A stretch of DNA of 64,000 nt, taken from contig CAWEHK010000050.1 in NCBI GenBank assembly GCA_963808625.1, positions 32,001-96,000 on the forward strand, in the 5' to 3' direction. Origin of the DNA: an uncultured delta proteobacterium (lineage in GTDB: Bacteria > Desulfobacterota > Syntrophobacteria > Syntrophobacterales > Syntrophobacteraceae). Shown one piece after another: positions 20,460-61,697 of the stretch. The notes beneath the pieces are model-generated. The model was not told the origin of the DNA. It ran no database searches and was given only the letters and a program-made list of their open reading frames with translations. Within the stretch, counting starts at the first letter, position 1. Each line of letters begins with the position of its first letter. A program made the position numbers and the translations under genes.

Positions 20460-20759
20460 CTAAGGCATCTTGAGAAGACGTTCGCTTCGCCAAACTCGCA
20501 CAATGCGAACCCGGATGTCATCGAACCGATAAACGATACGAAAAGGTGGGTATAGGATCTCTCTCAAATGAGCAACTCCAAACTCAGGCACAACGCGACC
20601 GCTTTCAGGGAAGTCTGCAAGTCGCTGCACCTGGGAAACCACTTCTCCCAACAATCGTTCGCCCACGTCAGGAACTTGCTGCTCAGCATACCACTCGCGT
20701 ATTTCTTCAAGATCCGTGACTGCCGATGCCGCGAATGTGATTTGGAGTCTCCGAGGCAT
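20460..20759 (-). CDS. RelE/ParE family toxin
   Basis: A.TDLEEI..WY...L.DFPESGRVVPEF...RE....PFRIVY; immediately after the antitoxin. Confidence 0.9.
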   Translation of the reverse strand: MPRRLQITFAASAVTDLEEIREWYAEQQVPDVGERLLGEVVSQVQRLADFPESGRVVPEFGVAHLREILYPPFRIVYRFDDIRVRIVRVWRSERLLKMP

Positions 20760-20763
20760 GATT

Positions 20764-21039
20764 TCAACCCAAGCCGAGATGCTTTTTGACGTCGGAAAGA
20801 TTCATTTCTCGGCCCTCTTCCAGGTCCATCAATCCTTGGACTACGCCACGCAGGAACGCCCGCTCTTCAACTTCCGTTTCGTATTCCTTAAGTGATTGGA
20901 CAACGGCAACGCCTCGCCCCCTGTTGGTCAAGAGCACCGGTCTATGAGTTTTACCGACCTGATTAACAACTCGACCGGGATTAACCTTCATATCGCTCAA
21001 TGGAACGATGTCTTCGGAGAATTTGGTGGATGTTCGCAT
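20764..21039 (-). CDS. Phd/YefM family antitoxin
   Basis: EDIVPLSDMK...RPVLLTNRGRGVAVVQSL.EYE; AAGGAGGAG RBS. Confidence 0.9.
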   Translation of the reverse strand: MRTSTKFSEDIVPLSDMKVNPGRVVNQVGKTHRPVLLTNRGRGVAVVQSLKEYETEVEERAFLRGVVQGLMDLEEGREMNLSDVKKHLGLG

Positions 21040-27822: not shown

Positions 27823-28699
27823 TCCGGGATATCCCCTATCCTTTGAGTTGATGAGAAGTTTCAACGCTCTTACCACCAGTGGGAGGAGACCTGCCATTTC
27901 CCTCCCGACTAGTGTCGAGCTTCAGCCATGGATGTCATCAACCGTCATTCCCGAAAGCTTCTCGTCGGCAACCCAGCTTTTGACCTTTTAAAAGCTGGAT
28001 TCCCGCTCAAAAACCCTGCGGGTTGACAGTTGGTTACAGCCATGGCTGAAGCTCGACACTGATCGGGTCTTTCCATGTCCCCGGCACTCCAGAACACCTC
28101 GATCCTAAAGCGCTCATCAGCTAATGCATTCGGGCCTTCTTGATCCCTGATAAGGCGGATTGGAATCACAGCGGCATGCTCCTGTGGAGTTGATTCGCTT
28201 TGCCTGGTGGTGAAGCATGGATTCAAATCAGGTTCACGAAAAGATTCTGCCATTGATTCAAAAAGGGCTTCTCATGGGGTTATTGAAAGAAAGGCAGAGC
28301 CATTGCTGACCCTGCCCGCTGCAAAAGGTATGGTGTAAAACACTGGCGGCATTAAAAGATGGGCGAGGTTAAAAAAAGGTTAAAATTGCGCAAGCGGCAA
28401 GCTGGCTCCTGGCGTGGCTGAGGGGATCATCCCCGCCGTGAAAAGTTCCAAAAGTTAGAGAAATGATGCGCAACAGGCCGTGTTTTTTTCTGCGGTAGGC
28501 TGCTTAAATGGAGCCCCCTCATGGGACTCGCTAAATACAACAATGCAACCGGAGCACTGAATCATCCTGTGGTGCAGGCTTTCCAGCCTGCCAGTGGGAT
28601 GGCAGGCTGGAAAGCCTGCACCACATAATCAGATGCTGCCTATTTGGGGGCAGCCACTAATCAAAAGAACCGCAAAACCATTTCTATCATCAGCGCGGC

Positions 28700-28768: not shown

Positions 28769-28811
28769 CATCCGGTGCGTGGTAAAAAAACGTTGCCAAG
28801 GGTCCAAGGGC

Positions 28812-31737
28812 TCAAGGGCCAAGGGCAACGGACCTGGAGAGGCGAAAGCCCAAGTCGTAGTCGCGGACGCCGGGCGTGCCGTAGCCGCGAAACGCCGACC
28901 GGCAGTACTGCGCATCGTGGTTCCAGCCGCCGCCGCGGAACACCCGGCGGGAGCCCCGTGGGTAATCGGTCCAGGCACGCCCGTCATCAGGCGCCCCGTT
29001 CGTAATTGTCATGCCAGTCATCTTCCGTCCACTCCCAGACATTGCCGTGCATGTCGTGGAGCCCGAAGCCATTCGCCGGAAATGAGCCCACCGGAGCGGT
29101 CTTCTTGCCACCCCACTCACTGCCGCAATCAGAGCAGTTGGCCCAGACCTTGCCGTCCTGATTGACGTCGTCTCCCCACCAGTAATTCGTCGTAGTGCCC
29201 GCGCGCGCCGCATACTCCCACTCGGCCTCGGTCGGGAGCCGAAAGGGTTTCCCCGTCACCCTGGATAGCCATTCAGCATAGGCTTTTGCATCGTCCCAGC
29301 TCACGTTGATCACAGGCCGCGAGCCGCGCCCCCAATTTTGGTCAGATGGAACCTCAAAGCCAACCGAATCCAAAACAAATACCGAGTATTCTTCGAAAGT
29401 TACCTCGTATTTGCCGATCTCAAAGGGTTGGATGGTGACGGAATGTCGCGGGCATTCACTACTTGACGAGCTTCTGGCATCTTTGGCATCACAGTCGGAC
29501 TCCCCCATCTCAAAGGCGCCCCCAGGCAATTTAACCATCGGCGGACCATCATAGAGACTGATTTTGGCAAGCATCCAAATGCGCAGCACGTTCCAGCTCA
29601 TCGCCCGGTTTTGCAGCCAGATGTGCACACTCCCAATGCCGACAACGAGCACAACCAGAGCCAGCAAAGCGCCCCAGAGCCTTTGCCGCCGCACCGCCGC
29701 ACCCATAAAGCGCCCGACGAGCCCGGCATCATCTCCTCGCGAGCAGGTCGGCTGGACCTTACGGTATTGCTTGAGCGTGGCCCGATCCGGCAGATACCTG
29801 AAAGGGGGCGCCCCTGCTTCCTGCCAGTCCGACGCCGCCCGGATCAGCCTGCGGCAGGCTCGAAGCTCTGCGGCGTGCGCCTCAATCCACCGGGAGAGGC
29901 GCTGCCAGGCGCTGAACACGGCCTCGTGCGCCACTTCGAGAGTGGGATTGTCAGCACGGTCCTTGTCCGTTACCAGGATTCTGGCCTCCACCAGCGCATC
30001 CACCAGCCGGGACCTGGCCGCGTCCTTGCGGATCGGGTCGAGGGATGCCCGCCGGCGGGTCGCAACGCCCTGATCATTGACTTCGACCAGGTCCGCGAAC
30101 AGTTCGTGCACTACCCGATCGTCGCTCTGGCCAAGCCGCTGGACCGCCCTTTCCGCCTGCGCTTGAATGGCGCCGGCAACGCCACTCTCGGCGTCATCAC
30201 CGAGCGATTCATAGTCCTGCAGGGTCATCCGCCGGGGATCTTTGCGGCGCTCATAGACCTCGTGGAGGGCAAAAGCCATCAGCGCCAAAGCTCCCGGGCC
30301 ACTGCCGGTATCCTTCAGGACCCGGTCACACAGGTCATCACCGATCTCCAGTCCGGCGGCGTGGGCCGGTCGGCGAATCATCTCGGCAAGCGCCCAGGGA
30401 CCCGGTGCAGAAAGGGAAAAGAACCCGCGTCCGCGAAAAAGCTCGGCCAAAACCGGTATCTCGAGGGCCCTGGCCAGGAACTCCACCCGCATGGTGACCA
30501 GCACCCGGACTTTATGAGTCCTGACAACCGTATCGATGAACTCAATGAACGCTGCTCGCTCAGCGTCGGGAACCAGGGTGAAGAGCTCCTCGAACTGGTC
30601 AATAACCAGCAGCAGTTCTGCGACTGGGGGACGAGCGCTCAGGAGGTTGCCCACGCAGGAAGCGAAACCGTCAGGCTTTGCTCGGAGGTCCTGGGCAAGC
30701 TCGGTCTCGCGCCGGCCGGTCGCGCCAAGCTTGGCTTTAAGAGCATAAGCCAGGGCGAGAAAGGGATCGTTGCCACGCTCACCGGGTTTGAAGGAGATGT
30801 CGACCCAGTGAGCGCTGCCCGGCAAGGCCCCGGCCCGCAGGCACGGGATGAGCCCGGCCGCCACCACCGAGGATTTGCCCGAACCGGATGCGCCGACAAC
30901 GCTGACGAAGCGGATTCCCGGGTCCCGCAGGACCTCCAGGAGTTGGTCGACTTCCTTTCCCCGTCCAAAAAAGATAGGCGCCTGCTCGGGTTTAAACGCT
31001 TCCAGGCCGGGATAGGGCGTTCCCGTCCAACGGAGGCGCTCCTCGATCTCCTGTTCCTGTGGGAGAGCCGATCTTAGTCCAGGGACAGAAGATTCTTCCA
31101 GAAACCTCGTGAGATGGTCCCGCAGGTGCTGCTCGAACTGCCGGCGGAATTCATCGGGCGCCTGGTAGTGGTTGACCCCGCCCGTCAGCGAGCCATCCTC
31201 ACCCATCAGCGTCTGGAAAAAAGACTTGACCTTTTGCCACTGAAGGAGCTTGTCTTCATACTCCGGATCGTCAAAGCTCGGAGCCGGAGTCTGTTTCCGC
31301 CGGTACAGCCAGACCGCAGGCCGCCCGGAGTTCCTTGCCGCCTGGATGGCGTCATGATACTCCCACTCGGTGCCCGAGAGATAGGCGGTGCCATCGGGCT
31401 TCGTATAGTCGGCCGGCAAGGGCGTACCGATTCGCGACCAGAAGATGACCACAACAAGGTCGCATTCGCACGGTTTGGGAAGGCCTCTCTTGATCGCCTC
31501 CTGGGGCGTGAGGCCGGCTTCCATCGCCACCTCGACGCCCGGCTGGTCCCAGGCGATGCACTCCAGGTGGACACGCTCCCGAAAAGCCCGCTCGGCGCGA
31601 ACCTGATCGATGACTTCCCGGGCAAGCATCCGCTCATGCTGAACATCTCCGGGCGAAGCCAGGAAGACTCTGAAGATGATGGGCTGAACGCGCGTCCGTT
31701 CGCCCTCGACAGCCCCATTTATCAGACCTGCAACCAT
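28812..31737 (-). CDS. NLR-like protein: DUF4062/TIR-like + nSTAND1 NTPase + TM + FGE-sulfatase (C-lectin fold) domain; +1 frameshift near 29000
   Basis: FRVFLASPGDV..ER/SGTEWEY; PYPGL..F, FFGR, GASGSGKSS, LLVIDQFEELFT, EVAHEA..W.RL..W; TM; RLPTEAEWEYAAR, GLHDMHGNVWEW; second frame RVFRGGGW...CRSA.R...LGFRL. Start uncertain. Confidence 0.88.
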
Positions 31738-61113: not shown

Positions 61114-61434
61114 ATGACCGCTGCAACGAAAGCCGATTCGCTCACTTTTGAAAAGATCAAACAGGGGCTGGACCCGGCCCACAGTTATATGGTCTTTGAG
61201 CGGCTCACCGTGGAGAAAGCGGAAAGCGCTTTCCAGGAGGTTTTCAAGGCCCTCGCGCGCATGGATTTTGGCTTTTACGAACGGCAGGTGCTCCATGACC
61301 AAGCCAGGGGGCGCCTGCTCCTGGTGGTAAAATTCGGTCCTGGCCGGATTGACAGCATTATGCAGGAGTTTTTGAATATCGGGCTGCCGGAAGACATAAC
61401 TTTTTATGCGTATGGCAGCCACAGCGCTGGTTAG
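61114..61434 (+). CDS. Hypothetical protein
   Basis: 106-aa ORF co-oriented between gabT and the ABC binding protein. Confidence 0.65.
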   Translation: MTAATKADSLTFEKIKQGLDPAHSYMVFERLTVEKAESAFQEVFKALARMDFGFYERQVLHDQARGRLLLVVKFGPGRIDSIMQEFLNIGLPEDITFYAYGSHSAG

Positions 61435-61697
61435 GAATTGTCCAAAAATGAGACATCTTTTTACCACGAAGGACCCGAAGAGCACCGAAGAAGAGGAAGT
61501 AATTTCTTCGTGCTCTTCGGGTCCTTCGTGGTTTGAGAGAGGGTCCGGGTGAGAGCAAGTTGTTTTTGGACGAGCCTTTAGAGTTGCCCGGTGGGAGATG
61601 ATCTTTTTACAGTTCTCCGAGCTGTCCAGTAGGGCCGGGCGCGTTGGCTATGGGAAGAGCAGCATCAGGTATAACGTTATTTCAAGGGAGGAACCGT

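Follow-up and report, generated by a model that had tools for sequence, protein, structure and literature searches.

On the evidence of its sequence, a gene on the minus strand of the window (the whole 64,000-nucleotide stretch of DNA analysed here) is a remote target of a diversity-generating retroelement (DGR), and it belongs to a catalogued class of such targets; the last 41 codons of its lectin were rewritten at template adenines. The initial annotation had proposed this origin for the tip, and we now regard it as nearly certain, given the adenine pattern, the invariant 3′ end with its hairpin and the fit of an orthologous template from a relative. The cassette that served the gene has probably been lost from the assembled strain.

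Architecture of the target protein

The gene and its protein-coding features are as follows.
28812..31737, minus strand: target gene encoding DUF4062/TIR-like, nSTAND1, transmembrane and FGE-type C-lectin parts, split in the assembly by a +1 frameshift
31087..31680, minus strand: DUF4062-like effector domain of TIR/NDT fold (Pfam E=5.6e-4, below cut-off; model pLDDT 87)
31366-31368, minus strand: Glu124, invariant in 114/114 aligned homologues
29809..31017, minus strand: nSTAND1 NTPase (PF20703, E=2e-100)
30868-30894, minus strand: Walker A, in 118/120 homologues
30586-30615, minus strand: Walker B, in 118/120 homologues
29614..29682, minus strand: single transmembrane helix (residues about 686-708, hydropathy 2.47), with basic residues on its N-terminal side
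28815..29544, minus strand: FGE-type C-lectin domain (PF03781, FGE-sulfatase, E=1e-48), in two frames in the assembly
about 29001, minus strand: extra base after which the variable region is out of frame, absent in 5/5 paralogs

All four parts had been read from the DNA at the outset and were recovered here, the DUF4062 match staying under its cut-off. The order of domains expected for 28812-31737 is likewise correct, but the span is not one reading frame. A homologue search returned 3337 proteins with E<=1e-30 among 8000 scored; the best 120 of the 3337 were examined, most of them full length. Sister clusters carry the same STAND-FGE core with TIR_2, SIR2 or kinase heads.

The DUF4062 profile (PF13271) gives the window protein 20.5 bits against a cut-off of 24.7, and the homologue P0117 reaches 25.2. 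As determined by structural comparison, the N-terminal model matches a TIR domain best (Z 9.9, rmsd 3.7 over 139 residues), with the NDT-family enzymes MilB and RCL close behind (Z 9.0); Foldseek returned weak flavodoxin-like matches only. From the motif around it, we infer that Glu124 is the equivalent of the catalytic Glu. The sole PADLOC match is a candidate system and covers the N-terminal part of the protein.

A helix of the kind seen here is present in 83 of the 92 top homologues with a recognisable tip, and Lys and Arg are richer before than after it in 105 of 108 helix-bearing homologues. Because basic residues cluster N-terminal of the helix, the lectin is predicted to lie outside the cytoplasm, as the initial annotation had placed it; this topology, N inside and C outside, is a prediction from hydropathy and charge only. 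The structure model contains a second short helix right after the first. The C-terminal fold, taken from a model of the ortholog P0004, matches PvdO, FGE and TvpA (2y3c). True FGE holds an active-site cysteine pair in its C-terminal core. This pair is not present here: P0121, the other member of the 90% cluster of the window protein, has one Cys where FGE has two, inside the variable tip, and the tip of the window protein likewise has one.

The target gene is solitary, with transport and cofactor genes around it; its neighbours within the window, judged from their translations, do not resemble a defence island. It lies at least 60 kb from both ends of its contig (C50) and is therefore a remote DGR target in any case. 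Elsewhere in the window, translations point to a small putative toxin-antitoxin-like pair (20460-21039) and to fragmented genes for a putative cobalt chelatase and transport-like proteins (35.9-40 kb).

A tip that varies at first and second codon positions

The variable region forms the 3′ end of the C-lectin gene and is followed by two further elements.
28834-28955, minus strand: variable region (VR), 122 nt with 19 variable codons, whose 3′ end is an invariant GC-rich, IMH-like segment (28834-28850)
28795..28833, minus strand: conserved 3′ tail specific to the targets, which contains short pyrimidine-rich repeats and runs across the stop codon
28700..28768, no strand assigned: perfect, GC-rich 29-bp inverted repeat with an 11-nt loop, downstream of the VR

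The codons quoted in the initial annotation were found at 28834-28955 on the minus strand. Its statement that every non-scaffold position reads NNC or NNT holds for the variable codons of the window copy, all of which end in C or T, with the exception of one NNG and of scaffold-type codons.

As determined by BLASTN and a motif scan, six genes of this genome share the same 3′ end, namely those on C50, C30 and C37 and three on C43. Their translations show heads that resemble DUF4062 or TIR, and an NTPase that is nSTAND1, of NACHT type or missing altogether. The 3′ tail hardly differs between the six targets, or between them and relatives. The core motif of the hairpin occurs at 5 places in the genome, each behind a target of this family, and in its outer stems the sequence differs between copies while pairing is kept. 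IMH and inverted-repeat features of DGR targets are described in parts of PMC5758913. An 18-nt REP-like palindrome (window 28560-28620) has 104 matches over both strands and also follows several targets.

Of the 122 columns, 32 vary among the six tips: first codon positions account for 16, second positions for 15 and third positions for 1. Indels occur in two of these tips, and the bases inserted there were left out of the columns. Third positions thus differ among the paralogs at 1 of 40 sites in the tip versus 29 of 35 in the 105 nt directly upstream. When each of the five paralogs is compared with the window copy, 199/200 third positions agree in the tip, against 101/175 upstream. The initial annotation had cautioned that high GC3 also favours NNC. 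This bias does not explain the tip, because third positions are frozen there and not upstream, and because only 491 of 916 codons across the whole ORF end in C or T.

In agreement with an expectation that variability among orthologs concentrates in the tip, P0121 differs from the window protein at 17 of 41 VR residues versus 58 of 911 elsewhere, and 16 of these 17 fall within the 19 variable codons. In the P0121 tip, one fixed codon departs from the scaffold of this genome and two others hold residues that this scaffold cannot give, which suggests that the tip was written by a different template allele. Counted on the four indel-free copies, the variable codons allow about 3.7e17 possible tips.

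An orthologous cassette in a relative

A search of the whole assembly for a near-copy template beside RT or avd genes, which the initial annotation had put forward, returned the six VRs and no matching template or RT. Similarly, a scaffold scan of all 54 contigs at 80% gave only VRs and no cognate template, and no cognate RT or Avd was found in this assembly, where only a truncated HRDC gene is left. Four RT matches occur in the genome. Two of them lie in DGR cassettes, on C38 and at C43:93-96 kb; these RTs are 41% and 46% identical to that of the relative G048, and each has its own template. As sources of the window tip, both templates are ruled out by non-A mismatches at 31/105 and 35/92 positions; as a positive control, the C43 template differs from its own two targets at 1/90 and 0/90 non-A positions.

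Wider searches for the cognate template were also negative. A pattern scan of genome contigs found only 2 overlapping loci, both from the target of one unrelated ternary system, and the 1 locus from a metagenome scan belongs to another DGR, whose 3′ end is not the same. Viral contigs yielded 0 loci and plasmids no match. Among 400 genomes of the phylum, 6 have similar tips, with no template in those loci; within the same family, a similar tip occurs in 6 of 80 other genomes. None of the public sequencing runs contained half of the query words. Four public runs from other samples, covered as contigs, include a close ortholog (in X2, with 139 differences over 3115 nt). Short contigs that reach into the tip were left out, as they are not assignable among paralogs. 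Sequence at the contig ends gives no support for a cassette just past the ends of C37 or C43. Two loci met in this work are of separate interest: a MoxR-type ternary locus (L019) whose target has two VR-like lectin tips, and a complete HRDC-RT-template DGR on a metagenome contig (L028), flanked by two NTPase/FGE targets.

An intact HRDC-avd-RT-template cassette aimed at the same tip is present in G048, one of the six other family genomes with a similar tip and 99% complete. Three G048 targets have the same tail, one adjacent to the cassette, a second about 460 kb from it within the same contig and a third on a separate contig, and they differ from the G048 template at 3, 5 and 3 of 93 non-A positions, in that order. 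When this template serves as a proxy, the six tips of our genome vary at 26 of its 29 adenines and at 6 of 93 other bases (p=1e-17). The window VR itself departs from it at 19/29 A and 9/93 other bases (p=7e-9). At 5 fixed non-A sites and 2 A sites, none of the six tips agrees with the G048 template, which also diverges in the conserved 3′ tail; judged by these differences, this template is an orthologous proxy and not the cognate template of the six tips. Because the assembly has no matching template, adenine specificity here rests on the template of a relative.

A probable cassette remnant between two targets

The truncated HRDC gene lies on C43 between two of the six targets (C43:61207-61632; region 61126-61632 with the palindrome). 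It is 59% identical to the G048 HRDC gene, a type with homologues in 2 of 81 family genomes, and it ends at an 85-nt palindrome of which the genome has about ten other copies. Between this remnant and the next target, some 300 nt on, there is no avd, RT or template. These observations strongly indicate that a cognate HRDC-avd-RT-TR cassette served at least six genes and was deleted in the assembled strain, and that the six tips are recent frozen variants. The sensor described as hypervariable in the initial annotation is accordingly one whose tip was diversified by a DGR, but whose cassette appears to have been deleted down to the truncated HRDC gene.

Because the scaffolds of the six tips are barely decayed, with 1 third-position change, unlike the orphan tips of the relative G007 with several, the loss is probably recent or has affected only some of the population. 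Such tips, with no Avd over the cut-off, also occur in four relatives that are 92-100% complete (G007, G018, G051 and G053), from which we conclude that orphan targets are common; G007 and G018 also have no close RT, their RTs being about 30% identical to that of G048, and G053 has RT hits. A DUF4062-like/NACHT gene at C17:17.8-19.9 kb shares 71% DNA identity with the target that adjoins the G048 cassette, but no longer has the lectin end.

The target might instead still be diversifying, with an intact cassette located in the 15% of the genome missing from the assembly or carried by some of the population. Since the assembly is 84.6% complete, a second copy of the cassette could be missing from it, and the nearly undecayed scaffolds are in line with continued writing. 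Intact and degraded versions of one DGR locus are known to coexist in one population (PMC10907252, in part), and indels in two of six tips are what a mixed consensus might give. We nevertheless consider continued diversification unlikely, albeit the most serious of the alternatives, as the C43 contig runs without a break through the site where avd-RT-TR is missing, orphan targets are frequent among near-complete relatives, and the other two templates of the genome misfit the tip.

Other retroelements of the genome are listed here for completeness. An intact-looking DGR with avd, template and RT spans C43:89.5-100.5 kb (L002) between two flanking FGE targets, in which 16/29 and 17/29 adenines of the template are changed versus 1/90 and 0/90 other bases; a copy of the 85-nt palindrome lies between its avd gene and template. 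The second DGR, at C38:13.6-23.3 kb (L003), comprises HRDC, a frameshifted RT and a template. Its local targets are two DUF4062-like/NTPase/FGE genes, and three genes on C37, C12 and C33 may be remote targets. The template may have drifted, because even the local targets depart from it at 8-9 non-A positions. Beside this template, at C38:19.1-19.9 kb, lies a gene that we take to resemble a REP-associated tyrosine transposase. Two non-DGR reverse transcriptases were found at C54:90.5-92 kb (L004) and C36:54.8-56.4 kb (L001); one of them resembles a group II intron protein and the other is a long, fragmented RT.

Comparison with known systems

The class to which the gene belongs is already catalogued (Kaur 2021, Dore 2024); the gene is a real new example of it, and the existence of the class is not new. 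NTPase-FGS conflict systems of the DrHyd+nSTAND1+FGS type, as set out in parts of Kaur et al. 2021 (PMC8195603), have the same effector, nSTAND1 NTPase and FGS lectin as the window gene, with DGR components that lie close by or at another place in the genome, as here. An N-terminal effector, a central STAND NTPase, a C-terminal FGS and several copies with differing NTPases or heads were all found in the present genome. 'DrHyd+nSTAND1+FGS' occurs 68 times in the supplement of PMC8195603, including deltaproteobacteria and entries named DUF4062. The window gene differs in the membrane helix between NTPase and lectin, whereas the main text of PMC8195603 calls FGS sensors intracellular; in 12 of its 13 supplementary files, nSTAND1+TM+FGS is given for two proteins and the string 'DrHyd+nSTAND1+TM' is absent.

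The targets of DGR 3 and DGR 6 (clade 5D) of Thiohalocapsa PB-PSB1 likewise consist of STAND plus C-lectin, as portions of Dore et al. 2024 (PMC10907252) describe. That genome, like ours, has several DGR classes, targets served in trans and cassettes degraded by repeat elements, and some of its lectins are predicted to be periplasmic, as is the lectin of the window gene. Its targets use an EAD8 adaptor, whereas the DUF4062 effector is fused in the window gene. Unlike in PB-PSB1, six targets on four contigs share one tip here.

The HRDC-type DGR of Treponema denticola with its target TvpA (Wu et al. 2018, PMC5758913, in part) similarly shows an FGE-type lectin, an HRDC accessory gene and up to seven non-adjacent targets, and the window lectin matches TvpA (PDB 2y3c) in both fold and sequence. 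Unlike the window protein, TvpA is described in sections of PMC10907252 as a surface lipoprotein without NTPase or effector. The DUF4062 TIR-like NADases Swarozyc, Evangelion and TEP1 (partial texts of 10.64898/2026.05.01.722283 and 10.64898/2026.06.25.731849) share with the window protein a TIR-like fold, an N-terminal aromatic motif and a conserved Glu; TEP1 also joins DUF4062 to a STAND ATPase. In the same portions of these texts, the three proteins are cytoplasmic and without a DGR-varied lectin; the window domain, for its part, scores under the Pfam cut-off. FGE domains are listed among STAND sensors in part of PMC13581612, and DGR targets with NTPase domains and extracellular parts are reported in part of PMC10686091. 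The literature searches turned up no paper devoted to the membrane-spanning DUF4062 form, and the supplements of the two DUF4062 preprints may list such proteins.

A proposed mechanism

By analogy with these systems, we propose that the lectin would face the periplasm and bind a foreign molecule there. Ligand binding would cluster the receptor and switch the STAND domain into an oligomer, and the oligomer may in turn activate the DUF4062 domains, upon which NAD+ would be consumed and the cell arrested or killed. Anchored in the inner membrane, the protein would expose its lectin to the periplasm; the likely ligands would therefore be things that reach this compartment, and we suggest phage ejection proteins as an example. 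DUF4062 proteins are described, in the parts available of 10.64898/2026.05.01.722283 and 10.64898/2026.06.25.731849, as NADases activated by oligomerisation in anti-phage systems. The STAND-lectin DGR class has been proposed to act as invader sensors (PMC8195603 and PMC10907252, each in part), and according to sections of PMC10907252 no STAND-lectin protein has been experimentally tested. We lean towards the account as a whole, in which a DGR-written tip has lost its cassette, a periplasmic lectin would drive STAND oligomerisation and NAD+ consumption by DUF4062, and the frameshift is an assembly error.

With the same DGR origin and topology, the protein could alternatively be a recognition or signalling receptor, whose lectin reads ligands of partners, kin or the envelope and whose DUF4062 domain makes a nucleotide signal. 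The solitary position of the gene among transport and cofactor genes would suit this role, the fold is common to the non-killing NDT-family enzymes MilB and RCL, and cyanobacterial targets have been argued to function in signalling, as cited in part of PMC10907252. We judge this role improbable, since the bacterial DUF4062 proteins that were tested deplete NAD+ in abortive infection (partial texts of 10.64898/2026.05.01.722283 and 10.64898/2026.06.25.731849), and since the exchange of TIR_2, SIR2 and kinase heads on one STAND-FGE core amounts to the effector swapping typical of conflict systems.

The split reading frame

In the assembly, the long ORF stops at 28987 and the VR sits in another frame. 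An assembly error is the probable source of the extra base at about 29001, given that rpoB, too, is spread over several frames in this assembly and that P0121, with 853 of 911 body residues identical (94%), is intact at 974 aa. Two contigs from another source (X3) are one base shorter across the site, which is a weak hint in the same direction. Frameshifts are common in essential genes of this genome, such as rpoB and rpsA, the latter (named from its translation) being split as well; hence, other findings of broken genes from it call for caution.

Were the frameshift real, the gene would be a decaying, non-functional relic that has lost its cassette. This view would accommodate an ORF that ends ahead of the tip, the fragmentation of several paralogs, the deleted cassette and the C17 paralog without its lectin end. 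We find it very doubtful, as rpoB and rpsA are multi-frame here too, of 9 further proteins of relatives, 3 fall on split frames in this assembly, P0121 is whole and the catalytic motifs are intact. That no DGR was involved, and that GC-rich codon use or ordinary gene conversion among paralogs made the pattern, is hardly credible despite the GC-rich genome and the absence of a cognate template from the assembly, given that positions 1 and 2 vary while the third is frozen (the reverse of the upstream control), that variation follows the template adenines of the orthologous G048 cassette and that a hairpin and an invariant tail stand behind the tip.

Implications

Rather tentatively, and as something that we hold possible but short of probable, the protein may represent a widespread bacterial NLR family whose single chain spans the membrane. 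In such a family, a DGR-randomised lectin with some 10^17 possible tips would watch the periplasm, and its signal would pass through the inner membrane to a STAND switch in the cytoplasm and the TIR-like NADase fused to it; loss of the cassette would fix the six selected tips as a heritable record. If this is true, the sensor would stand on the far side of the membrane with the switch and a now-assayable NADase in one chain, which would allow a direct test with loss of NAD+ as the readout. Such a test would bear on the question, raised by Kaur 2021 and Dore 2024, of whether DGR-diversified STAND-lectin proteins are true antigen receptors. The locus also shows targets that outlive their cassette, and DGR searches anchored on cassettes therefore miss such genes.
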